Shown here: one piece after another, positions 33,030 to 56,925 of the stretch
Layout: every line of letters starts with the position of its first letter
How positions within the stretch are numbered: position 1 is the first letter of the stretch
Assembly: GCF_003790525.1 (NCBI RefSeq)
Contig: NZ_CP033635.1
Length of the DNA stretch: 64,000 bases
DNA from: Escherichia coli
GTDB lineage: Bacteria; Pseudomonadota; Gammaproteobacteria; Enterobacterales; Enterobacteriaceae
Strand: one strand, 5' to 3'
Translations under genes and position numbers: made by a program
The notes under the pieces: generated by a model
What the model saw: the letters and a program-made list of their open reading frames with translations, nothing else
Databases searched by the model: none
What the model was told of the DNA's origin: nothing

Positions 33030-34142
33030 CCACTCTTTACCGCGTGCGTCGTTGTAAATATCGGTCATTTTTTGATTCGAATGGCCCAGCAAAATTTTGG
33101 TATCAATTCCCTGTTCTCTGAACAATCGTTCTGATAAAGATCTTTGCTCATGGAAAGAGGGTGGCGTGCCATTAGCACGCCAGTTGTAATCCACAGAATC
33201 CCGGGCTTTTTTAAATGCGACTGTTAATGTTGCTGGTTTAACCATCCCGCCGCGCTTACCCATCCCCTTAGCGTGATGATGGTGCAATAACCACGGACTA
33301 AGGATGTAATCACGACAGGATGACACCACGTCACCCAGGGTAAGATTTAATTTGTCGCAACGCAGAGCCAGAGGAATGGCTATCCGGGCTCCTGTTTTTT
33401 GCTGTTCGACATGAAGGTAACCATCCCGGATATCCGAAAACTGCATTTTGCAAATATCCGAAAGACGCTGGCCCGTCATCAGTGCCAGCAGCATGCCGCG
33501 CTGTAAAAAGTAACCATCCTTTTCCGCTGCGTTATAAATCATCATCCACTCATCAAAAGTCAGTCGCTGTCTTGATATCCGCACTTGCGGTTTTTTTGCC
33601 GATTCAGCCGGGTTAAAGCCTGGCGGAACATCACCAGTTTGTTGAGCCTCCCGGAAAACATCGATCAATACCTTCCTGAAAATTTGTCCCATTCTGTTAT
33701 GTCCCTTTGCCTTGTATTCTTCCAGCACCGATACCACATCTTTTACGGTTATGGCATCTAGCGGCCTGGCTCCAAAACGTTCATCAAACACCCTGAGAGG
33801 AGCCGCTTTTTGCTTCAGCGTGCTGAGTTTGATCTCTCCGTTCTCATATCTTTCCTGTTGAATTTTTCTGTAATTATTCAGAAAAATGGAAACGGTTGAT
33901 GCGCCGCCGGTATCACTAATAATTTTCTCCTGCAGACTGAGCATTTGCTCCATTTGTTGTCTGGCAAGACGGCTGTTCGCTTCTGCTGAAATGGTTTCCG
34001 CCAGTTTCTGGTCAATACTGCCGAGTCCATGATTTTTACCTGTGATGGGATTCCTGTAACGCCAGTAAACTTTGTTATTTCTTTTGTCAAAATACGGAGA
34101 TAAACCCGGAACATCGGTTTTATATTTTCTCGGGCGCGCCAT
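33012..34142 (-). CDS. int: prophage tyrosine integrase
   Basis: 376 aa, lambda-Int-like catalytic C-terminus (...HEQRSLSERLFREQGIDTKILLGHSNQKMTDIYNDARG) with catalytic Tyr in DIYND. Confidence 0.9.
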   Translation of the reverse strand: MARPRKYKTDVPGLSPYFDKRNNKVYWRYRNPITGKNHGLGSIDQKLAETISAEANSRLARQQMEQMLSLQEKIISDTGGASTVSIFLNNYRKIQQERYENGEIKLSTLKQKAAPLRVFDERFGARPLDAITVKDVVSVLEEYKAKGHNRMGQIFRKVLIDVFREAQQTGDVPPGFNPAESAKKPQVRISRQRLTFDEWMMIYNAAEKDGYFLQRGMLLALMTGQRLSDICKMQFSDIRDGYLHVEQQKTGARIAIPLALRCDKLNLTLGDVVSSCRDYILSPWLLHHHHAKGMGKRGGMVKPATLTVAFKKARDSVDYNWRANGTPPSFHEQRSLSERLFREQGIDTKILLGHSNQKMTDIYNDARGKEWKKLVI

Positions 34143-34432: not shown

Positions 34433-36886
34433 TTAAAAATCAGCCTGATTCGGGATCAGTTTTTGTATAGTGGCTGTTACGTATTTTGCCTGGTGAAGAG
34501 CGTCATCCAGAGCATTATGGCGCACGCCTTCGAATGGAATTACGCTTCTGGCATTGAAGTCTGTGATTTTCCCCATCTCAACGATTGTGCGTACATCACG
34601 ATCGTTGCTGTAATGCCACGGACAGGGGATGTCCAGACGTTCGTATGAGGTGCGCAAAATTGCGTTATCGAACGTTGCGCCATTACCCCACACCTGAACG
34701 AATTTTTCATCAGAGTGTTCATTGACGAATTCCCGAAAACGCAAAAGGGCATCTTTCATTTTTACCTGGTCAGTTAAAATGGCAGCTCTGGCTTCGCTGG
34801 ACTGCTTCAGCCACCATTCGATGGTGCCACCATCAGGAACAGCCCCTGTATTCATTGCGTCAGTCAGGCTGATAACGATATAAAATACCGGCCCGATTTC
34901 CCCTGTTTCCGGGTCGAAGAAAACCGCACCAATAACTACTATGGGTGCATTGGTGTTGGCTCCCATTGTTTCAAGGTCGACTGACAGGTGATTCCATACT
35001 CTGCTGGTGGATGTGATTTCACGATGACCGTTCATCTTAATTAAGGAATTTTCTGTTTCGCCAGTTTTATTATCGCTGGCGTGGCCCTGAGCGCCGCCAG
35101 TGTTCTCCTTGTGCGGATGCTCAGTGCCTTCCGTTTCCTCCGGATTTTTTTCCTGAGATTCAGCCTGATTTTCTCCATTGAATGTTTCCTGGTATGTTGC
35201 GTCACCCATTACTGAGCCACAATCAGGGCAGTTGCCGCCGCTGGTCTGACCGCAGGCGGTGCAGACTTTTTCCGGTTCCTGTTGCGCTACTGGCTCAGGT
35301 TGTTTCGTTTCTGGCTCGTTTTGTAACGCATTTTGGCTGTTTTGTTCCGCTTTCTGGTCGTTCTGTTCCGTTTCTTGCTGGTTCTGGTTCACTGAATCGC
35401 GAGTCTGGACTCCCTTAACCCATTTCAGATCATTCGGGTCGCTAATCCCTTCAACGAACTCACCACGCGAGGCCGCCAGTAATTTGTCTGCATCGACAGG
35501 ATTTTTGGGCGGAATGTTTTTCCTAGCTTCATGGAGTTCTGCCCGCAGTTTCTGATATTTCGCATCAACAGAATTCACCTGCGGCTGAGCATCCAGCGGC
35601 TGCGTGTCCGGATGATGTTCAGTTGTATCCGGTTCCACTGTTTCAGTCGTTGGCTGTTCATCTGCCATTGCGCCAGACGGTTGCGGTTTTTCTTCATCAT
35701 CCTGTTTTCCTTCTTCTGTTACACGCTGCGGCATTGGGGCAGAGGAACGACCGCAGGCAATATCCACGATTTCCGGATCAGGGTTGGCATGATCGGTTTC
35801 GGTCAGCACTTTATTCAGGTATTCGGTGACGCGCTGGGGCATAGCCTCTATACCAACCGGTGCTTCTTTCACGGAGGCAACCACGATGGCGCGGGAATAA
35901 TCCATCCCGCCTGGCATGTTCAGAAAAGCCTTAAGGAAGACGGAGAAACAGGGATCATTTTCTGCGATAATTTCGTTAACACGTCTGGTATGTGAAGGAT
36001 GCATGTTGTAAATATCCACATCCATCGAACGAGCCAGTTTTCCTGTAGCAACATCGAATGCCATTGACGCATTATCATGCACAAAACCTTCGCCGCGATC
36101 GGTAAGGATACCGCCGCCAGCGTTAGCGCCGGATGGTGTGCGACTGATGCGAGAAACACGATTTCCTTTCATCCACTCTTTTGTAAGCAGACCACGATCA
36201 GTGTAGTCAGCGTCCAGGTATGCTTCGATGAAGGAGGTCATCAGTCCCAGGTCTGAATTTACGGGGGCGGGAAAAACTTTGTCAGTGTCCCGCACCAGTT
36301 TGTACAAATCCCGAATCTCCAGCGGTTCGAGTTGCGCTGCTTTATTTGAGATGGCCAGCGCGGTAACGGCGGGAAGTTTTTCTTCCTGTGCGTTATGTAA
36401 TGAGCGCAGTTCATCCCGCGAAACGTGCGTTACTGGTTTTTCGCCGCCGTGTTGCGCCAGCCAGCGAACAGGCAGAATCTGACCTGAAACCGGCAGAAGC
36501 ATATTCTCCTCAATCTCAGTCATGTCTTCGCCATTAACATTGGTGTTGTCAGTGCTGGCTGGTTTGTCCTGCGCGGATGGCGGGGGCGCGATAAATATCA
36601 TTGTGATGCCATCTTCGCCGCCTTTTTCATACCGGTTACAGAATTCGGTATCAAACACGCCTTCCGGTGGAAGGTCATCAACAACGGGCAAATGGACGCG
36701 AACAGGTTTTTTAAAGTCGTCTTCATCATAATCGTTATCATCCATTGCGGTAATACAGCGGGAGATGGCAACAGATAATTTTTTTGCTGTAGTCCAGTAA
36801 AAACCACCTTTAATCCCAAGGCGTTTTCTGACTTTGTCATTTTTAGCTTCGCAATATAGCGCAAAAGTTTCTTTATCAGTGCTCAT
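34433..36886 (-). CDS. phage exonuclease family protein with C-terminal DEDDh (DnaQ-like) 3'-5' exonuclease domain
   Basis: 817 aa; C-terminus [23 protein letters not shown]...[13 protein letters not shown]...HNALDDA; central zinc-ribbon [16 protein letters not shown]. Confidence 0.75.
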
Positions 36887-45033: not shown

Positions 45034-45333
45034 TTATAAGAAATCGGTTTCATAACTTTGTCCGCCATGATAAACACCTGCGATAAAGACTTTATTGTCA
45101 TCAACGGCAAAAGCAATAATCGTTCTGTGGCGGAAATGAGTTACCCGCATCCCCTGGCGAATATCATCGCGTTTATTGCCCCGATGCGGAAATGCAGAAA
45201 ACCCATCAAGATAATCAAGAAGCGCATTGGCATAATTGTCAGCAATGACGCCTCCTGCTTTCTCCGTTATATATCTGTGCAGGTTTATTATCTGCTGTTC
45301 GGCCTCGGGGGTAATGATGACTTCAAATGTCAT
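45034..45333 (-). CDS. parE: type II toxin, RelE/ParE family
   Basis: 99 aa ParE-like pattern; 5 bp downstream of antitoxin gene. Confidence 0.7.
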   Translation of the reverse strand: MTFEVIITPEAEQQIINLHRYITEKAGGVIADNYANALLDYLDGFSAFPHRGNKRDDIRQGMRVTHFRHRTIIAFAVDDNKVFIAGVYHGGQSYETDFL

Positions 45334-45338
45334 GCAGA

Positions 45339-45596
45339 CTACTTCCCGGATCTAATCGCGGCGCGAACCTGTGAAATGGAGCGTCCGTTGTTTGGGTTTT
45401 CGCGGATAGAATCAAGAGAGGGGGCGACTGAATGCGTTAACCACGCTTCGATTGCTTTATCGCGCTCATTCAGTGCGCGAAGCCCTTCACGAATGACCTC
45501 GCTTTCTGAAGCATAGGCACCGGAAGCCACACGGGAGCGCACCATGTCAGCCATCTCGTTAGTTAATGTAATACTGAATTGTTGGGTTGTACGCAT
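45339..45596 (-). CDS. parD: type II antitoxin, ParD/ribbon-helix-helix family
   Basis: start at MRTTQQFSITL (RBS gtgagg); RHH motif SESEVIREGLRALNERDKAIEAWL. Confidence 0.7.
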   Translation of the reverse strand: MRTTQQFSITLTNEMADMVRSRVASGAYASESEVIREGLRALNERDKAIEAWLTHSVAPSLDSIRENPNNGRSISQVRAAIRSGK

Positions 45597-48345: not shown

Positions 48346-49059
48346 ATGGATGACAGTACTCTGCTCAGGTACTCTTCACTTTTTGTTGCTTATATGGGAT
48401 GTCTTGGGTGGGGAAGCGCTTACTTTTATGGCTGGGGTACATCCTTTTATTATGGTTTCCCATGGTGGGTGGTTGGGGCTGGTGTCGATGATGTGGCCAG
48501 AAGCCTTTTTTATGCCGTTACAGTCATTGTTATATTCCTGATTGGGTGGGGAGTCGGTGTTGTTTTCTTCCTGGGGATCAAACAAAAAAATAATGTGCAG
48601 GATCTGAGTTTTATCAGACTTTTTCTGGCGATATTGTTGCTTTTTGTTCCGCCTGCTCTGGAGTTTTCAGTAATTCATCGACGCGTTGCGCTAGATGCAT
48701 TGGTTTTATGCGTTATTGCTGCCTTAATAATTACGGTTTTTGTCAGGTCAGGAAGAAGACTTATTTCAGTCAAATGTTTTTCGGAAATGTCTTTTATTCG
48801 TCATCACTGGATTGAGTGTATGATGGTCGGATTCATGATCTATTTCTGGGGATTTTCACTTATTGCCGGTTGGTACAAACCCCAGTTTAAGAAGGAATAT
48901 CAGATGCTCCACTATGATAGTGTCTGGTATTATGTTCTTGCACGCTATGATGACAGGCTGGTGTTGTCGAAATCGTACAGTAATGGGAGTTCTACATTCG
49001 TTATACTTAATAGCGGGCAGATTGATGACTTCGAAGTTAATGTAGTCAGAGTGCGTTAA
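48346..49059 (+). CDS. membrane protein of unknown function (cargo between Q and tRNA genes)
   Basis: 237 aa; Trp/Gly-rich N-terminal TM helices plus hydrophilic C-terminal region; visibly AT-richer than flanking prophage genes. Confidence 0.6.
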   Translation: MDDSTLLRYSSLFVAYMGCLGWGSAYFYGWGTSFYYGFPWWVVGAGVDDVARSLFYAVTVIVIFLIGWGVGVVFFLGIKQKNNVQDLSFIRLFLAILLLFVPPALEFSVIHRRVALDALVLCVIAALIITVFVRSGRRLISVKCFSEMSFIRHHWIECMMVGFMIYFWGFSLIAGWYKPQFKKEYQMLHYDSVWYYVLARYDDRLVLSKSYSNGSSTFVILNSGQIDDFEVNVVRVR

Positions 49060-49181
49060 TATTGCCTGAGTAATTTTCTGTTGACCGCTCAAATTCTTTT
49101 ACCATGTGTAGGCCAATATGCAGGATTTAATCAGGGAAGGGTATTGCAGAGCAAAACTGGCATAAGTATTATTCCGCATAC

Positions 49182-49257
49182 GTCCCTTTAGCTCAGTGGT
49201 GAGAGCGAGCGACTCATAATCGCCAGGTCGCTGGTTCAAATCCAGCAAGGGCCACCA
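49182..49257 (+). tRNA. tRNA with CAU anticodon (Ile2/Met-type, ileZ-like)
   Basis: cloverleaf folds by eye: D stem GCTC/GAGC, anticodon loop CTCATAA, T loop TTCAAAT, CCA encoded; one mismatch at pair 2-71. Confidence 0.8.
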
Positions 49258-49258
49258 A

Positions 49259-49335
49259 CCGCCACTAGCTCATCAGGAGAGAGCATCAGCCTTCTAAGCT
49301 GACTGTGCGGGGTTCGAGTCCCCGGTGGCGGTCCA
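49259..49335 (+). tRNA. tRNA-Arg (UCU)
   Basis: cloverleaf folds by eye: D stem GCTC/GAGC, anticodon stem TCAGC/GCTGA, loop CTTCTAA, T stem CGGGG/CCCCG, CCA encoded. Confidence 0.85.
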
Positions 49336-49336
49336 G

Positions 49337-49410
49337 CGCCGACTTACCTCAGTCGGCAGAACAGTTTAGTTGTAACCATCAGGCCACCACTTCAATTCCG
49401 GTAGTCGGCA
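49337..49410 (+). tRNA. tRNA-like sequence, possibly degenerate third tRNA
   Basis: perfect 7-bp acceptor stem GCCGACT/AGTCGGC and TTCAATT T-loop-like motif, but no canonical D or anticodon arm and no CCA. Confidence 0.25.
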
Positions 49411-49750
49411 CTAAATTTCCAGGCTCGTGCTCACGGCCTGCTTCATATCCGCGCCAGGTCCGTCGCGATTAAACCACAGGGCTTTTCAGGAGGGGCCACA
49501 GAGAGCGTCACACTGACCATTCCCTGTGGCTTGTGCTGAGATCCGGTCAGTGAAATTGTGCAAAGGGAATCTTCGGGAGCTTTGGGCAGAATGTCAGTTA
49601 TTGATGTTGACATCCTCCACACCCTGAAGGTCGGGGTTTTACGGCGCACTGGATAAAATACCTGAACAAACAGCCTCTTCGTGCGGCTTTTTTATAACGA
49701 GATTCTGACTTGCTGCCGTCCGTAATGTCGGATGGCGGAGGTGAGGGACT

Positions 49751-50023
49751 ATGAGAATGGACGAACGATACAGTAACGCTGCATACGGCAGCGCAGGACT
49801 TGTTGCGTTCTTTGCCAGCCTGTCACTGCAGGATTGGGGATTTATTATCGGCGTGGCGTTCAGTATCATTCTTGGTGTTCTTACTTATCGCCTTAACAAA
49901 CGGGAGCAGGAAAAACGAACCCGCATATTGCTCGAAATTCTGGAACGAACTAATGCCGGTAATGTTCCGGCTACGGCACATGCTGTGGCTGAGATTGCGA
50001 AAAAGGCACCAAAAGAAATATGA
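49751..50023 (+). CDS. holin (two-TM, pinholin-like) with dual-start motif
   Basis: 90 aa; MRM dual start, two hydrophobic helices, charged C-terminus; RBS ggaggtgaggg. Confidence 0.7.
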   Translation: MRMDERYSNAAYGSAGLVAFFASLSLQDWGFIIGVAFSIILGVLTYRLNKREQEKRTRILLEILERTNAGNVPATAHAVAEIAKKAPKEI

Positions 50024-50179
50024 CGAATATCCCGGGAGTGAGGGGATAATATACCTTTTAACAAAATCCGGGAACATGAAACGCCCGGAACGTTTCATGA
50101 GACATGCCCCGTGGGGAGCAGGGCATAACTGTGCGGAATAGCTTTCATTGTGATATCAATAATCACGGTATTCAAAATA

Positions 50180-50557
50180 TTACGGGCCTGTGGGATCAGG
50201 TTGTTTTTTGTCTGATTCCAGAGGGAAGGGACGCTGTTTCGGTTCTCTGAACTTTAGTGATAATGAATTGAAAATCCTCATTTTTTGCTGCCATGCATAA
50301 TGTCTGTCCCATGAACAGGGGGGGCTCAATTCTTCATTCACCCATGCGTTAATATCTTGTTTCAGGTGTTGAAGCATATGGGGTGTTAATGCACTCATAA
50401 TAATATCCAGCGTTTTATGCGAGAGTTTACCGTAAGGGTCTGCAAGGATGCTGCTCGTTGCTTCGTTATTATCCACCATAAGTGGAAGTAGCGCTGATTT
50501 AACTTTTTCTGTCATTAGTTGCAAAAATCTACTGCGCAAATTTTCTTTACTGTTCAT
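50180..50557 (-). CDS. hypothetical protein encoded antisense inside the lysis cassette
   Basis: 125 aa hydrophilic ORF with gagg RBS; lies between 11-bp direct repeats at 50087 and 50607. Confidence 0.45.
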   Translation of the reverse strand: MNSKENLRSRFLQLMTEKVKSALLPLMVDNNEATSSILADPYGKLSHKTLDIIMSALTPHMLQHLKQDINAWVNEELSPPCSWDRHYAWQQKMRIFNSLSLKFREPKQRPFPLESDKKQPDPTGP

Positions 50558-50680
50558 TTCTGAAGCCTCATCTGTTGTCGTTTGGTTTTCCTGAACGGGT
50601 ATGTTTATGAGACATGCTGGTACTGGATTATATACCTGATATATCCAGGGCTATAAACCTTTAGATCCTGATAAATATAC

Positions 50681-51214
50681 ATGAACGCAAAAATCAGATA
50701 CGGCCTGTCGGCTGCCGTTCTGGCGCTGATTGGTGCTGGCGCATCTGCTCCTCAGATACTTGATCAGTTTCTGGACGAAAAAGAGGGTAACCACACAACG
50801 GCATACCGCGATGGTTCTGGCATATGGACCATCTGCCGCGGTGCCACGGTGGTGGATGGAAAACACGTTTTTCCCGGAATGAAGCTGTCGAAGGAAAAAT
50901 GCGCTCAGGTTAATGCCATTGAGCGTGATAAGGCGCTGGCATGGGTGGAGCGCAATATTAAAGTTCCACTGACCGAAGCACAGAAAGCGGGTATTGCGTC
51001 ATTCTGTCCCTATAACATTGGCCCCGGTAAGTGTTTCCCGTCGACGTTTTATAAGCGGCTTAATGCCGGTGATCGAAAAGGCGCCTGCGAGGCGATTCGC
51101 TGGTGGATAAAGGATGGTGGGCGCGATTGCCGCATACGTTCAAATAACTGCTATGGACAGGTTATTCGTCGTGACCAGGAAAGCGCATTAGCCTGTTGGG
51201 GGATAGATCAGTGA
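50681..51214 (+). CDS. SAR-type endolysin (phage lysozyme)
   Basis: 177 aa; N-terminal signal-anchor-release-like segment [15 protein letters not shown] followed by lysozyme-like catalytic region; precedes Rz/Rz1. Confidence 0.8.
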
Positions 51215-51678
51215 GCAGAGTCGCCGCGATTATTTATGCTCTGGTTATCTGCATCATCGTCTGCCTGTCGTTGGCGGTCAATCATTACCGTGATAACGCC
51301 ATAGCCTACAAAGAACAGCGTGATAAAAAAGTCAGTGAACTGAAGCAGGCGACCGCCACCATTACTGACATGCAGCAGCGTCAGCGTGATGTTGCTGCGC
51401 TCGATGCAAAGTACTCGAGAGAATTAGCCAATGCGAAAGCTGAAAATGAAACTCTGCGCGCTGATGTTGCCGCTGGCCGTAAGCGCCTGCGGGTCAATGC
51501 CAGTTGCTCCGAAGCCGTGCGTGAAGCCACCGGACCCACCAGCGTGGATAATGCAACCAGCCCCCGACTGGCAGACACCGCTGAACGGGATTATTTCACC
51601 CTCAGAGAACGGTTGATGACGATGCAGAAGCAACTGGAAGGGGCACAGGAGTATATCCGCACTCAGTGCATTAAGTAG
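51211..51678 (+). CDS. i-spanin Rz
   Basis: GTGA overlap with endolysin stop; N-terminal TM helix, coiled-coil periplasmic domain. Confidence 0.8.
51431..51616 (+). CDS. o-spanin Rz1 (lipoprotein embedded in Rz, +1 frame)
   Basis: [22 protein letters not shown] lipobox and Pro-rich [28 protein letters not shown], very similar to lambda Rz1. Confidence 0.8.
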
Positions 51679-51701
51679 CCTTTTTGTTATCAGGAGAATG
51701 T

Positions 51702-51971
51702 ATGAAGAAATTACTGGTAACCGCAAAGCTCTTTAATGGAAGAATCCCGTTCCGGATTTTACAGCGTGGTCGTGTTCTGGCTGAAGGTACATTCAGTGGT
51801 AAATGCACGGAATGTTATTCACGAATATATGAAGTGGATGCCACGGATGAAGATATAATCGTTGAGTGTAATGCCGGGATTGTATCGGCCACATTGCTTC
51901 ATGGGCGAATTGAGTTGTCGCTGGAGGATGCGGCAAATGAATTACCAACTGGCAAAACTTTATCGCGGTAA
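51702..51971 (+). CDS. hypothetical phage protein
   Basis: start MKKLLVTAK with RBS aggaga; overlaps next ORF in another frame. Confidence 0.45.
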   Translation: MKKLLVTAKLFNGRIPFRILQRGRVLAEGTFSGKCTECYSRIYEVDATDEDIIVECNAGIVSATLLHGRIELSLEDAANELPTGKTLSR

Positions 51972-52137
51972 ACATTTCGCAGGGTATGGGATTGCAGTTA
52001 ATGGTGAGTTACTGGAGGGGCAGCTTTCCGCCAGGACAGAGTCACGCGGAGGCGAGCCACCAACAGTCACTGTGACTTTCAGACTGACAGCAGAACATAT
52101 CGAGAATCAGCCCGTCATTCAACTGAACAGGGTGTGA
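51937..52137 (+). CDS. hypothetical phage protein
   Basis: start MNYQLAKLY with RBS ggagga; reading frame is open upstream to 51862. Confidence 0.4.
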   Translation: MNYQLAKLYRGKHFAGYGIAVNGELLEGQLSARTESRGGEPPTVTVTFRLTAEHIENQPVIQLNRV

Positions 52138-52144
52138 GGTATTT

Positions 52145-52231
52145 ATGCCATCACGAATCCCACGTGCCTGCCGTAAGCGTGGATGCGCAGGTACAATCAC
52201 AGACAGTTCTGGTTACTGCGATAAACATCGT
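52145..52231 (+). pseudogene. HNH endonuclease, N-terminal remnant
   Basis: MPSRIPRACRKRGCAGTITDSSGYCDKHR matches the characteristic start of phage HNH endonucleases; downstream sequence is unrelated AT-rich DNA. Confidence 0.45.
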
Positions 52232-52313
52232 GTGCGACCGTGGTTGCTCGGTATCTTTGTCTCTCTTGGTAACTTATTTGTTCGAACCGGTTTACAACTT
52301 ACAGGATATAAAC

Positions 52314-52763
52314 ATGCAAGAAGAAGCAAATAAAATTCTTGTTGATTTATTGACGAAGGCCAGCGATGGAATTGATTCCGCCATTGCATTCAGTCAGGCT
52401 CAGATTCCGGATGTTGTTCATCAGTTGCTGGTATGGAATATGGTTGATAGCCTGATTAAAACATTAATAGCCATTTCAACAATCCCTCTGGTTTTCTGGT
52501 TTATGAAGAAGCAGTGCCAAAGAGTTGAGACAGGTAAAATCGGTGATGAAGGATATTCATGGGAGAAGGGAAATCCCAAATACAGGCCGACAATGGTTTG
52601 GGATAGCAAAGGTGATATTAATCTTCTTATCGTGCCATTGGTTGGAGTTTTGACTATGTGGGGGATTTTTATTATTTGTGCAGTAACCAATATGACATGG
52701 TTAAAAATCTGGCTGGCACCTAAGTTATATCTAATCGAATACGCAGCATCACTAATTAAATAG
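52314..52763 (+). CDS. membrane protein of unknown function (AT-rich moron)
   Basis: start MQEEANKIL with agga RBS; two predicted TM helices; hairpin terminator just downstream. Confidence 0.55.
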   Translation: MQEEANKILVDLLTKASDGIDSAIAFSQAQIPDVVHQLLVWNMVDSLIKTLIAISTIPLVFWFMKKQCQRVETGKIGDEGYSWEKGNPKYRPTMVWDSKGDINLLIVPLVGVLTMWGIFIICAVTNMTWLKIWLAPKLYLIEYAASLIK

Positions 52764-53194
52764 TCCATTACAAAAGCCATTCGCTACAGAGTGGCTTTGA
52801 TAATGGCTTATACCCTGTACGGGATAACTTAATTGATATCCCTTTTAACGGATAAAGGTATTCAAGCCTGACACATCATTCGCTATATAGTCGCCGTATT
52901 CCCGTATGAACAGAAACCGTAGCCCGACGGGGAACTCCTTCTGCGCGAGTGTGCGGGAATAATCAAAAACGATGTACACCGGGTTTTTACCGCGTTAATG
53001 ATTCGCGGGTTTATCCCTCATAGTCGCCTGTCCGGTGCGATGGTGGAAGAAACCGGAAGCTGTATTACAGAAAGTGCTACTACTGTATCCTGATGCGATG
53101 TATGTAATGTGAGTCAGATAATGGCACAGGATGTGGTGATGTGGCAGTCTGGAACACAGGATATATTGTCAGAATAAGACCCGTAGGAATAAAA

Positions 53195-53521
53195 ATGAAA
53201 AGACGCCTTTCACTACTTTTTCTGTTATCTGCCCTGGCAGTGGGATGCTCGCAGCAAAAAGCTGATGAGCCCCGGCAATTAGTGACGGTGTATCCACGAT
53301 ATCCGGAATATGCTGCAGCAAATTATATCAAGGGGCTGGTTGAGGTTAAGTTCGATATTGGTGCTGACGGGACTGTGACACGGATCGTTTTTCTCCGCTC
53401 AGAGCCTCATAATTTGTTTCGTGATGAAGTGGTGAAGGCCATGGCGAAATGGAGATTTGAAAAGAATAGTCCCCGTCAGGGAGTGAAGAGACAATTTATC
53501 TTTACGCCATCACGTCCCTGA
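53195..53521 (+). CDS. lipoprotein consisting of a TonB C-terminal-like domain
   Basis: start MKRRLSLLFLLSALAVGCSQQ (lipobox LAVGC); region YPRYPEYAAANYIKGLVEVKFDIGADGTVTRIVFL...FRDEVVKAMAKWRFE aligns with host TonB C-terminus [32 protein letters not shown]...[15 protein letters not shown] in this window. Confidence 0.7.
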   Translation: MKRRLSLLFLLSALAVGCSQQKADEPRQLVTVYPRYPEYAAANYIKGLVEVKFDIGADGTVTRIVFLRSEPHNLFRDEVVKAMAKWRFEKNSPRQGVKRQFIFTPSRP

Positions 53522-53885
53522 TGCTTCCAGGTAGAGAGGGGCTGGAAGCAGGAGAAAAATGAAAGAGCCAGCGGTTATATTTTTGTCATGGCTGACGAGA
53601 AATGATGGAAGAAGGCGTTGTATGCCACACAACGCCTCACTGTTCATTTCTTCTTTTTCTCTGGTGTAACCCGATGAATAAGAGTTGCACTGGTTTCCGG
53701 TGAGATGGCGATATGCTCGGGCAAAGTATGCTGGCAGTTTTCCAACTGGTCAAAAATATCTGCTCTCGTCTGTTGCAATGCCTGCAGCATGCGGCGGCAA
53801 TGCGCCTTTGCTTTTGCTAACCATCTTTCCTTCCTCTATCAGTCGCTGCGTGAACTCATCATGGAATACCAGGTAAATGCGGATG

Positions 53886-54137
53886 TTATCGGTTTTGGCT
53901 ACGCAGCATAGTACAAAACGGACAGGTGCATCCCGGAATGGGGGAGGCGTCACATGTCCCTGTGATGGTTGTTCCGGGTAATGCACTGTGTGGGGCATAA
54001 AAATGTCCGATAATTTTACTTTCTACCGCAGTTAGTTGATTCGTTGGTCCTGGTAGCACATTGGGCGAGGGTTTAAATGCCAGGCAACTGAAGGATGATG
54101 TTGCAAGGGAGATAGCGAGAATATTTCTGATTTTCAT
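53886..54137 (-). CDS. small secreted Cys-rich protein
   Basis: start MKIRNILAISLATSSFSCLA signal peptide; C-terminal Cys cluster TGTCDASPIPGCTCPFC. Confidence 0.45.
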   Translation of the reverse strand: MKIRNILAISLATSSFSCLAFKPSPNVLPGPTNQLTAVESKIIGHFYAPHSALPGTTITGTCDASPIPGCTCPFCTMLRSQNR

Positions 54138-54287
54138 TTGATGATGCCTCTGTGTGAAATGACGGTAAACGACGCACTTGTGCCGGCACATAATAGCAAG
54201 CATCAGAATAGATCAGATTCGATTCTTGCTGTAAGTGATAATTATTCTCGTTTTTTCGGGTCCTTTCCGGCGATCCAACAGGTTACG

Positions 54288-54299
54288 GGGCGTCGACCT
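54288..54299 (+). other. cos site cohesive-end sequence (cosN), lambda-like
   Basis: ...ccggcgatccaacaggttacg GGGCGTCGACCT cgcgggttttcgctatttatg closely matches the remembered lambda cos junction; about 180 bp upstream of Nu1. Confidence 0.7.
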
Positions 54300-54476
54300 C
54301 GCGGGTTTTCGCTATTTATGAAAATTTTCCGGTTTAAGGCATTTCCGTTCTTCTTCGTCGTAACTTAATGTTTTTATTTAAAATACCCCCTGAAAAGAAA
54401 GGAAACGACAGGTGCTGAAAACGAGCTTTTGGGCCTCTGTCGTTTCCTTTCTCTGTTTTTGGCCGTGGAATGAACA

Positions 54477-55025
54477 ATGGAAGTCAACAAAAAGCAGCTG
54501 GCTGACATTTTCGGTGCGAGTATCCGTACCATTCAGAACTGGCAGGAGCAGGGAATGCCCGTTCTGCGAGGCGGTGGGAAGGGTAATGAGGTGCTTTATG
54601 ACTCTGCCGCCGTCATAAAATGGTATGCCGAAAGGGATGCTGAAATTGAGAACGAAAAGCTGCGCCGGGAGGTTGAAGAACTGCGGCAGGCCAGCGAGAC
54701 AGATCTGCAGCCCGGTACGATTGATTACGAACGCTACCGTCTCACAAAAGCACAGGCAGATGCGCAGGAACTGAAAAATGCTCGTGAAGAAGGGCTGGTT
54801 CTTGAAACGGAATTATTTACCTACATTTTTCAGCGAGTTGCGCAGAATATATCCGGGATCCTTGTTCGTGTTCCGCAGACACTGCAGCGTAAATACCCTG
54901 ATATATCACCAGCACATCTTGATGCTGTGAAAACTGAAATCGCGAAAGCATCCGATGTGGCTTCTGAATCAGGTGAGAATGTGTGGAGGTGGATTGATGA
55001 TTTCAGACGAGCTGAGGGCGGCTAA
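54477..55025 (+). CDS. nu1: terminase small subunit
   Basis: [42 protein letters not shown] matches lambda Nu1 N-terminus. Confidence 0.92.
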
Positions 55026-56925
55026 CTCTACAGGAGCGATAACGACTGGTCTCCTTGCGCTAAAAATTCCTGTACCCCTGACGACAGTTCAGTGGGCAGA
55101 TCAACATTATTACCTGCCGAAAGAGTCGTCTTACACACCAGGGCGGTGGGAAACATTGCCGTTTCAGGTTGCCATAATGAACAGTATGGGTAATGACCTG
55201 ATCCGCACTGTTAATCTGATTAAATCTGCCCGTGTTGGTTATACAAAAATGCTGTTGGGAGTGGAGGCTTATTTTATTGAGCATAAATCCCGCAACAGTC
55301 TGCTTTTTCAGCCCACGGACTCAGCTGCTGAAGATTTTATGAAATCTCATGTTGAGCCAACGATAAGGGATGTTCCTGCATTGCTGGAGCTGGCTCCATG
55401 GTTCGGAAGAAAACACCGCGATAATACGCTCACCCTGAAGCGTTTTTCCTCCGGTGTGGGGTTCTGGTGTCTGGGTGGTGCGGCAGCAAAAAACTACCGT
55501 GAAAAATCCGTGGATGTGGTCTGTTATGACGAGCTTTCCTCGTTCGAACCGGATGTTGAAAAAGAGGGCTCGCCAACCCTGCTGGGGGATAAGCGTATTG
55601 AGGGCTCTGTATGGCCAAAATCCATTCGCGGCTCGACGCCTAAAATCAAAGGCTCCTGCCAGATCGAAAAAGCCGCTAACGAGTCGGCACATTTCATGCG
55701 TTTTTATGTGCCCTGCCCGCACTGTGGGGAGGAGCAGTATCTGAAATTTGGCGATGAATCCACGCCTTTTGGCCTTAAATGGGAGAAGGAAAGCCCCGAA
55801 AGCGTTTTCTACCTTTGTGAGCATCATGGCTGTGTGATCCATCAGTCTGAGCTTGACCAGAGTAACGGGCGGTGGATCTGTGAAAACACGGGCATGTGGA
55901 CCCGTGACGGCCTGATGTTTTTCAGCGCCCGGGGTGATGAAATTCCGCCGCCGCGCTCCATCACTTTCCATATCTGGACGGCGTACAGTCCGTTCACCAC
56001 CTGGGTACAGATTGTCTATGACTGGCTGGATGCACTGAAAGATCCCAACGGCCTGAAAACCTTTGTGAACACCACGCTGGGCGAGACCTGGGAAGAGGCC
56101 GTGGGCGAAAAACTCGATCACCAGGTACTGATGGATAAGGTTGTGCGTTACACGGCGGCGGTGCCTGCCCGGGTGGTTTATCTGACGGCGGGCATTGACT
56201 CGCAGCGAAACCGTTTTGAGATGTATGTCTGGGGATGGGCTCCGGGAGAGGAAGCCTTTCTGGTGGATAAAATCATTATTATGGGGCGTCCCGATGAGGA
56301 AGAGACACTGTTACGTGTGGATGCAGCGATCAACAAAAAATACTGCCATGCAGACGGAACCGAAATGACCATTTCCCGTGTCTGCTGGGACATCGGGGGG
56401 ATCGATGGCGAAATCGTTTATCAGAGGTCAAAAAAACACGGTGTTTTCCGGGTGCTGCCGGTAAAAGGCGCATCTGTCTATGGCAAGCCGGTGATCACCA
56501 TGCCAAAAACCCGCAATCAGCGGGGCGTGTATCTGTGTGAAGTGGGCACGGACACCGCAAAAGAAATTCTCTATGCCCGTATGAAAGCCGCTCCCACGCC
56601 TGCGGATGAATCCACGTCGTATGCCATCCGTTTTCCTGATGATCCGGAGATTTTTTCGCAGACAGAGGCGCAGCAACTGGTCGCGGAAGAGCTTGTGGAG
56701 AAGTGGGAAAAAGGAAAGATGCGTCTGCTGTGGGATAACAAAAAGCGGCGTAACGAAGCGCTGGACTGCCTGGTGTATGCCTACGCGGCATTACGTGTGT
56801 CCGTGCAACGCTGGCAGCTTGATCTGGCTGTACTGGCAAAATCCCGGGAAGAAGAGACGACCCGGCCAACCCTTAAAGAACTGGCAGCGAAGCTGTCCGG
56901 AGGAGTGAATGGTTACAGTCGCTGA
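54997..56925 (+). CDS. A: terminase large subunit
   Basis: start [11 protein letters not shown] overlapping Nu1 3' end; Walker-like ATPase region and close match to lambda gpA. Confidence 0.92.

Follow-up and report, generated by a model that had tools for sequence, protein, structure and literature searches.

A truncated HNH endonuclease gene at a probable module-exchange joint with an N15-type palindrome, and a phrog_3054 membrane-protein gene beside it, in an Escherichia coli prophage

The stretch of DNA analysed here (the window) comprises 64,000 nucleotides of the Escherichia coli contig NZ_CP033635.1 (RefSeq assembly GCF_003790525.1) and covers the chromosome from narX to ompW, followed by a lambdoid prophage inserted beside ompW. 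The subject is the interval between the lysis genes and the cohesive-end site (cos) of this prophage, where the remnant of an HNH endonuclease gene stands next to a gene for a 149-residue membrane protein of the family phrog_3054. The late operon contains, in order, the endolysin gene, Rz/Rz1, two small open reading frames (ORFs), the HNH remnant, the 149-residue gene, a TonB-like lipoprotein region, cos and the terminase genes Nu1 and gpA. The stretch tested is 100% identical in strain LR-31 and in 14 other complete genomes. An earlier note on this DNA had proposed that a moron replaced most of a terminase-associated HNH gene upstream of cos, and that the membrane protein is a candidate exclusion or abortive-infection factor. 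The features on which the analysis bears most directly are the following, with positions counted from the first letter of the window.

52145..52231, plus strand: HNH remnant, codons 1-29, zinc-ribbon-like N-terminus only; a pseudogene in RefSeq
52228..52232: putative recombination joint, TCGTG common to the HNH gene (codons 28-30) and to the left flank plus edge of the donor palindrome
52232..52249: degenerate palindrome of the N15 SopB centromere type, GTGCGACCGTGGTTGCTC, a 16/18 match to GTGCGACCGTGGTCGCAC
52250..52313, plus strand: leader of the membrane-protein gene, 64 nt, kept in PhiR46_1, L219 and phage-plasmids, with the ribosome binding site AGGA at 52303-52306
52314..52763, plus strand: 149-residue membrane-protein gene, phrog_3054 (E 7.5e-61, residues 1-149 against profile positions 1-137 of 137)
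52765..52806, plus strand: conserved stem-loop with its core at 52773-52798 (dG -26.9 kcal/mol, z -5.3)
52765-53057: block B, of which the stem-loop is the first element; also found 3' of other cargo in lambda-like phages
52881..54287, plus strand: phage-21-like right end, 96% identity to phage 21
53195-53521, plus strand: gene for a lipoprotein with a TonB C-terminal domain, 'TonB family protein' in RefSeq, within the phage-21-like segment
54288..54299: lambda-type cosN, GGGCGTCGACCT; the end of the phage 21 genome aligns to 54287
54477..56925, plus strand: lambda-type terminase, with Nu1 at 54477-55025 and gpA at about 54997-56925 (a phrog_57/phrog_15 pair)

The ORF at 52145 starts with MPSRIPRACRKRGCAGTITDSSGYCDKHR, and 28 of its first 29 residues (the difference being T18I) are those of the intact 116-residue HNH proteins of the phages vB_EcoM-606R7 (606R7), PhiR49_2 and phiP27 (protein L34). 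Beyond residue 29 of this ORF, no similarity to the intact HNH proteins was found. The remnant matches phrog_144 ('HNH endonuclease') in the PHROGs database with an E value of 1.1e-7, its DNA is 88-98% identical to that of the intact genes, and RefSeq already annotates 52145-52246 as an HNH endonuclease pseudogene without its C-terminus. The identity of 28/29 residues, the phrog_144 match and the RefSeq annotation bear out the statement in the earlier note that an HNH N-terminus is present and that the match is lost about 29 codons in, and alignment with the intact genes places the breakpoint at 52231/52232. The zinc-ribbon-like residues C9-x4-C14 and C25-x2-H28 are kept in the remnant; the Pfam HNH domain (PF01844), which occupies residues 66-112 of the intact protein, is wholly lost. 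HNH genes adjacent to cos and terminase genes often bear an N-terminal zinc ribbon (PMC3592412). Compared with the terminase-associated HNH endonucleases of cos phages (HK97 gp74 and phiP27 L34), the remnant is alike in its N-terminal 29 residues (shared with phiP27 L34 and its relatives), in its place after the lysis genes and in the CxxxxC...CxxH motif. It differs from them in that the catalytic domain is lost, the gene is a pseudogene, and the neighbouring cos and P27-type terminase have been swapped for lambda-type ones. The open frame from 52145 continues to 52333, which gives a 62-residue chimera of the remnant and a new tail. The HNH remnant has no function and is functionally unimportant, and its flag as a pseudogene in RefSeq predates the present analysis.

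Identity to the intact HNH genes stops at 52230-52237, and identity to the donor begins at 52228-52232. At the crossover the HNH gene reads ...CATCGTGGCGAAGG, the flanks of the donor palindrome read ...CTCGTGTGCGACC and the window reads ...CATCGTGTGCGACC; comparison of the three places the crossover within the shared TCGTG at 52228-52232. We infer that microhomology-mediated illegitimate recombination made this joint. The HNH stretch is matched up to this same point, and no further, in about 890 complete E. coli genomes, and only 15 of 5426 genomes have the junction itself. The GC fraction falls from about 0.50-0.53 upstream to 0.38-0.40 over the membrane-protein gene, so the switch to AT-rich DNA described in the earlier note is confirmed. 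The 3' end of Rz, a short spacer and the start of the HNH gene, which precede the joint, run as in 606R7 and PhiR49_2; to the right, the match is to Escherichia phage PhiR46_1, with 90-93% identity over 52232-52261 and 52258-53057. The joint is like the mosaic joints, or 'moron' sites, known between the lysis genes and cos of lambdoid phages in its sharp break at a short microhomology, in the variable cargo between Rz and cos (bor, Rha, TonB-like genes and others) and in the lower GC content of that cargo. It differs from them in that the packaging module is swapped as well, and the scan revealed no autonomous promoter or terminator for the gene.

The first 18 bases past the break are the degenerate palindrome at 52232-52249, both of whose mismatches fall in the right arm. 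The perfect palindrome GTGCGACCGTGGTCGCAC occupies the same relative place in PhiR46_1 (locus L003, positions 2813 and 3033) and in locus L219, where it lies immediately 5' of the leader. N15 (L141/L142) has exactly four copies, at 33479, 35930, 41124 and 45561. These are the published SopB centromere sites IR1-IR4, with both arms perfect (PMC7205306 Table 4). The sites of N15 and F differ at position 4 of each half-site, and the N15 copies fit (PMC2910045). Relative to IR1-IR4 (GTGCGACC-NN-GGTCGCAC), the window copy is alike in matching 16/18 positions and in lying upstream of a cargo leader in the lysis-to-cos region; it differs in having two mismatches in one arm, and the window encodes no SopA or SopB. 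The reading of the palindrome as a terminator (the IR4 copy is a putative rho-independent terminator in the N15 GenBank record) or as a generic boundary was considered and was overturned by the identity of the four N15 copies with IR1-IR4. A tblastn search of the window with N15 SopA, SopB, TelN and RepA yielded nothing, and on this ground the palindrome is best read as a relic, presumably non-functional in an integrated prophage. A second, weak match to the palindrome, with three mismatches, lies at 1638-1655 inside narK; it most likely arose by chance, since one of 100 shuffles also yielded two matches.

The donor side of the joint points to N15-like linear phage-plasmids. PhiR46_1 is itself such an element, encoding a large primase as well as having telL/telR and ParA/ParB. 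The palindrome, the 64-nt leader, the 149-residue gene, the hairpin and block B recur as a unit in N15-like linear phage-plasmids, and the cassette is found at about 90% identity in 19 plasmid records from E. coli, E. albertii, E. fergusonii and Shigella (about 38-81 kb, mostly 46-51 kb). The plasmid records that match number 49, and almost all of these are typed as non-mobilizable. In the lysis-to-cos region of these phage-plasmids the palindrome flanks differing cargo genes. The exact palindrome GTGCGACCGTGGTCGCAC occurs in more than 120 IMG/VR stretches (loci L021-L140 together with N15 and PhiR46_1), in at least 98 flanking contexts and often in two to four copies per contig.

The change at the joint extends well beyond a single gene. 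The cosN at 54288-54299 lies about 1.5 kb 3' of the membrane-protein gene and 2 kb 3' of the HNH remnant, so that the earlier note was right in placing the membrane gene upstream of cos. Its cohesive end GGGCGTCGACCT is one base off that of lambda, GGGCGGCGACCT. The gpA of the window is 68% identical to N15 gp2. The intact relatives of the HNH gene stand directly 5' of cos (annotated in phiP27), P27-family TerS (TIGR01558) and phrog_9 TerL, and the terminase of the window (phrog_57, phrog_15) belongs to different families from these two. The HNH protein GP74 of HK97 has been reported to promote cos cleavage by terminase, 'unlike lambda' (PMC9410871). Nu1/A has also taken the place of the P27-type terminase, and a lambda-type cos that of the original one, so what the joint records is an exchange of the entire right-end and packaging module and not the insertion of a lone moron. 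What stood of the earlier proposal is the truncation after codon 29 and the foreign, AT-richer DNA with an intact membrane-protein gene; the autonomous moron is not supported, given that cos and terminase have changed too and that the gene is part of a larger N15-like unit. The family label of the gene at 53195-53521 differs between sources: it is a 'Rz-like spanin' in PHROGs and TonB-like in RefSeq and in the phage 21 record.

A contig from IMG/VR (L146) shares with the window its lysis module, its HNH break and both of its palindrome mismatches. The joint thus appears to have arisen once. Past the palindrome, L146 carries a full phrog_2571 gene and then the leader with phrog_3054, an order also seen in PhiR46_1. 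The loss of phrog_2571 in the lineage of the window would be explained either by deletion between the TTTGTC/TCTGTC repeats or by recombination with an L219-like donor. The membrane-protein gene is internally mosaic: it hardly differs from the PhiR46_1 allele in codons 1-44 and 125-149 (synonymous divergence, dS, 0.04-0.06), and codons 45-124 are nearer to the HF4s/Gally type (dS 0.14 versus 0.32, in a comparison with L003, L007 and L010).

The membrane-protein gene has an AGGA at 52303-52306, 7 nt 5' of its ATG, and its product has two hydrophobic segments, at residues ~46-64 and 102-124; a protein of 149 residues with two transmembrane segments and its own ribosome binding site is therefore encoded at 52314-52763, as had been described. 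The family shares an N-terminal region that is helical and acidic (F26, P32, Q37, W41), a pair of hydrophobic helices that are themselves variable, a loop 15-59 residues long and a C-terminal amphipathic helix that is nearly invariant, WL(K/Q)IWxAPKLYL(I/L)EY. An AlphaFold2 (AF2) model from a shallow alignment had a mean predicted local distance difference test score (pLDDT) of 63; with a deeper alignment, the pLDDT was 73.6 and the model a simple helical bundle. A cluster of Lys and Arg right after the first hydrophobic helix emerged from the positive-inside analysis. This pattern hints, in a manner that is not decisive, that the loop is cytoplasmic and both termini periplasmic (N-out, loop-in, C-out). 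The ratio of nonsynonymous to synonymous divergence (dN/dS) is 0.11-0.17 overall (about 0.12), with 0.01-0.09 in the termini and 0.26-0.53 in the core, and such low values indicate an intact, functional gene under purifying selection. The family comprises 488 clusters of close relatives at 90% identity and 1768 representatives at 50% identity (E <= 0.001); ten distant relatives all match the phrog_3054 profile.

Searches for a known function returned little. The protein had no match among Pfam, NCBIfam and PDB sequences and none among the PADLOC defence models at E <= 0.1; Foldseek against PDB and BFVD returned only uncharacterised phage proteins or members of the same family. No functional study was found in the literature on Sf6 gp34, phrog_3054 or the accessory genes near sieB and ral. 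Shigella phage Sf6 gene 34 protein and HK639 gp44 belong to the same phrog_3054 family, with a full-length profile match and the two-helix architecture, and the identity to Sf6 gp34 is 44%. The copies of Sf6, HF4s, Oslo and Gally lie in the early-left region 3' of N, whereas the window copy lies in the late region beside cos. T4 Imm, HK97 gp15 and P22 SieA are also small phage proteins of the inner membrane, acting in exclusion; the likeness to them is a functional analogy only, the membrane protein having neither sequence nor fold similarity to any of the three. P22 gene 17, which is exclusion-related and has a similar position, was tried as a family member and rejected (hhalign probability 0.1).

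Downstream of the gene, the strong hairpin noticed in the earlier note is present; it has no U-tract, was not called in the terminator scan, and is part of block B. Block B is also found in Ayreon, after a small ORF and with the hairpin annotated as a terminator, and in 2B8, after Rha; both phages are devoid of a phrog_3054 gene. Since block B occurs in phages without the gene, the hairpin is part of the neighbouring conserved block and probably not the gene's own terminator. Upstream, a sigma-70 consensus scan of 52232-52313 revealed no promoter-like site, the sole match nearby overlapping the start codon.

Among 80 close IMG/VR relatives, the gene lies just 3' of the antiterminator gene N in 65, often beside ral or sieB; nine have a cos-side position, accompanied by the palindrome and block B, and six are unclear. 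Annotated copies 3' of N include Sf6 gene 34 and those of HF4s, Gally, Oslo and SPN9CC, the last two being neighbours of sieB. A consensus scan of the Oslo and Sf6 contexts yielded no plus-strand promoter 5' of the gene. A terminator-like hairpin with a T-run is present 3' of the gene in both phages, and in Sf6 there is one 5' of it as well. The N-side copies would be expressed only from the N-antiterminated early transcript. Distant relatives are encoded in virulent N4-like phages (Ithacavirus), in Justusliebigvirus and in Vibrio and Pseudomonas phages, among co-oriented small unannotated genes; in seven phages no conserved neighbour or partner gene was found downstream. For three distant metagenomic relatives, the context is provided by contigs of only 1-1.6 kb. 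The absence of a PADLOC match, the promoterless position 3' of N in 65 of 80 close relatives and the presence of the family in virulent phages weaken the idea of a prophage-expressed exclusion or abortive-infection protein, and the family context points to a membrane function in the lytic cycle rather than to a moron protecting the lysogen.

The lysis side of the interval carries the following genes, all on the plus strand.

50681..51214, plus strand: endolysin (lysozyme R), from the ORF list, 'lysozyme rrrQ' in RefSeq; the lysis module is common to HNH-carrying phages
51196..51678, plus strand: Rz i-spanin, with the Rz1 o-spanin embedded at 51431-51616 (ORF list and RefSeq)
51702..51971, plus strand: 89-residue ORF, phrog_2571 (E 6e-24, profile positions 100-182 of 291)
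51862..52137, plus strand: small ORF of phrog_10235 (E 9e-30), without RefSeq annotation, overlapping the 89-residue ORF

The 3' end of Rz (51517-51685) is 94% identical to 606R7 and PhiR49_2, both of which run on into an intact HNH gene. Relative to these two phages, the left side has two small extra segments, the 89-residue ORF and the segment with the phrog_10235 ORF. The former is a homologue of only the middle third of the phrog_2571 proteins of 286-291 residues, with 46% identity to residues 101-169 of the full-length protein of PhiR46_1; the full-length phrog_2571 gene adjoins phrog_3054 in PhiR46_1 and L146. The latter is on a 139-bp segment missing from 606R7 and bordered by imperfect 9-bp direct repeats, CAGGGTATG at 51980-51988 and CAGGGTGTG at 52128-52136.

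In the prophage at 35806 to ~48100, genes for integrase, excisionase, exonuclease, kil, Rha, RusA and Q are annotated. None of cI, cro, N and O is annotated there, and P and DicB are truncated, on which grounds the prophage beside ompW is probably defective. If so, its late operon, including the membrane-protein gene, may never undergo normal induction. The early region also contains a type II toxin-antitoxin pair of the RelE/ParE-ParD kind at 45034-45596 on the minus strand. Genes for tRNA-Ile and tRNA-Arg lie at 49182-49335, 3' of Q and 5' of the lysis genes, an arrangement found in many Stx-type lambdoid phages. An Rfam scan of 49000-55000 found these two tRNAs and nothing else.

We consider it likely that this locus reflects ordinary phage mosaicism, namely the scar of a module exchange between two kinds of temperate phage, with a passenger gene that acts in the lytic cycle. 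The lysis module and the beginning of the 116-residue HNH gene, left of about 52232, would come from a phage with a P27-type terminase, which the intact HNH protein is thought, by homology, to help in cutting cos. To the right of 52232, a right end of the lambda/phage 21/N15 type would have been acquired, with the decayed palindrome, the leader, the phrog_3054 gene, the stem-loop and block B, the TonB-like region, the lambda-type cos and Nu1/A in this order. The two parts would have been joined by illegitimate recombination at TCGTG, at the edge of the palindrome. After the exchange the HNH gene would be dispensable, because a lambda-type terminase cuts cos without an HNH partner, and the membrane-protein gene would have been brought in, as a passenger, with the exchanged right end. 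In a sister lineage phrog_2571 is still found between the palindrome and the leader. For the window copy, expression would rely on read-through of the Q-dependent late transcript, and for most of its relatives on the N-antiterminated early-left transcript. The product is most likely an inner-membrane protein acting in lytic development. By analogy with T4 Imm, it could condition the envelope of an already infected cell against the entry of further phage DNA, a proposal that we make with low confidence.

Several points weigh against this interpretation. The direction and the order of events are reconstructed solely from present-day sequences. With one case only of a palindrome at the joint, its location at the crossover could be a coincidence, and its two mismatches could be older than the transfer. 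A simple sigma-70 consensus scan may miss a weak or non-canonical promoter, in which case the gene could be expressed in the prophage state. The proposed membrane function is based on context and composition, and neither structure nor sequence connects the protein to a characterised exclusion protein. Finally, the conservation of the termini across phages of distant hosts fits a conserved host target, in takeover or anti-defence, at least as well as it fits exclusion.

This last point leads to a rival according to which the protein would be an early host-takeover or anti-defence factor binding a conserved inner-membrane component of the host (a protease, a translocase or a membrane-bound defence effector) through its N- and C-terminal helices. 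The very large size of the family (1768 representatives at 50% identity), the terminal motifs that scarcely vary between phages of Escherichia, Salmonella, Vibrio, Pseudomonas and Rheinheimera, the concentration of constraint on the termini (dN/dS 0.01-0.09) and the early host-modulating genes that are its lambdoid neighbours (ral, cIII, kil and anti-RecBCD genes) speak for it, set against which are the lack of a conserved neighbour gene, of homology to characterised proteins and of an identified partner. This role is possible, and we regard takeover or anti-defence and the exclusion of DNA entry as about equally likely. A role in lysis is unlikely: although two hydrophobic helices and a position ~640 bp 3' of Rz in the late operon would suit a holin, an antiholin or a lysis regulator setting lysis timing, no holin family was matched in Pfam or PHROGs, most relatives are unlinked to lysis genes, and 65 of the 80 close relatives as well as the copies in virulent phages lie far from them. 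We therefore rate a lysis-timing component as highly improbable.

The insertion of an autonomous moron, with its own promoter, ribosome binding site and terminator, that deleted most of the HNH gene and makes an exclusion or abortive-infection protein in the prophage state, has in its favour that the GC content is below that of the flanks, that a ribosome binding site and a strong stem-loop are present, that cargo is known to occupy the lysis-to-cos interval (in relatives bor, Rha and TonB-like genes) and that sieB adjoins the gene in Oslo and SPN9CC. However, no promoter-like site is found upstream, the stem-loop lacks a U-tract and lies in a block found without the gene, the type of cos and terminase changed at the same joint, PADLOC gave no match, and most relatives are promoterless in an N-dependent early operon or reside in virulent phages. 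An autonomous moron is hence rather improbable, and a defence gene expressed from the prophage is unlikely. It could also be imagined that the 62-residue chimeric ORF (52145-52333) is functional, either as a small zinc-binding protein or as an upstream ORF that couples translation into the membrane-protein gene, as its ribosome binding site and start are kept and it overlaps the ATG of that gene by 20 nt, stopping 17 nt past the ATG codon. Its tail is not conserved, since L146 has a different downstream gene at the joint; the junction is present in 15 of 5426 genomes and RefSeq calls a pseudogene, all of which makes a function for this ORF very hard to credit.

The module exchange favoured here would be textbook lambdoid mosaicism, unusually well resolved, and useful in that the two parents can be recognised along with the precise crossover point and an intermediate form. 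It would also record the passage of genes from N15-like linear phage-plasmids into an integrated prophage, with an apparent relic of a partition site left behind, and N15-type centromere palindromes may be preferred joints at which cargo moves between phage-plasmids and integrated prophages. The passenger phrog_3054 is the more useful lead: with ~1,800 representative clusters at 50% identity, it is under purifying selection, has no Pfam family or solved structure, and is present in easily manipulated model phages (Sf6 and P22-like phages). We tentatively raise the possibility that phrog_3054 (Sf6 gp34-like) proteins constitute an unrecognised, widespread class of inner-membrane effectors of Gram-negative phages, temperate and virulent, that act in the lytic cycle through the N-terminal helical domain and the C-terminal helix (W-L-K/Q-I-W-x-A-P-K-L-Y-L-I/L-E-Y), and that may bar further phage DNA at the envelope or else neutralise a conserved membrane function of the host.

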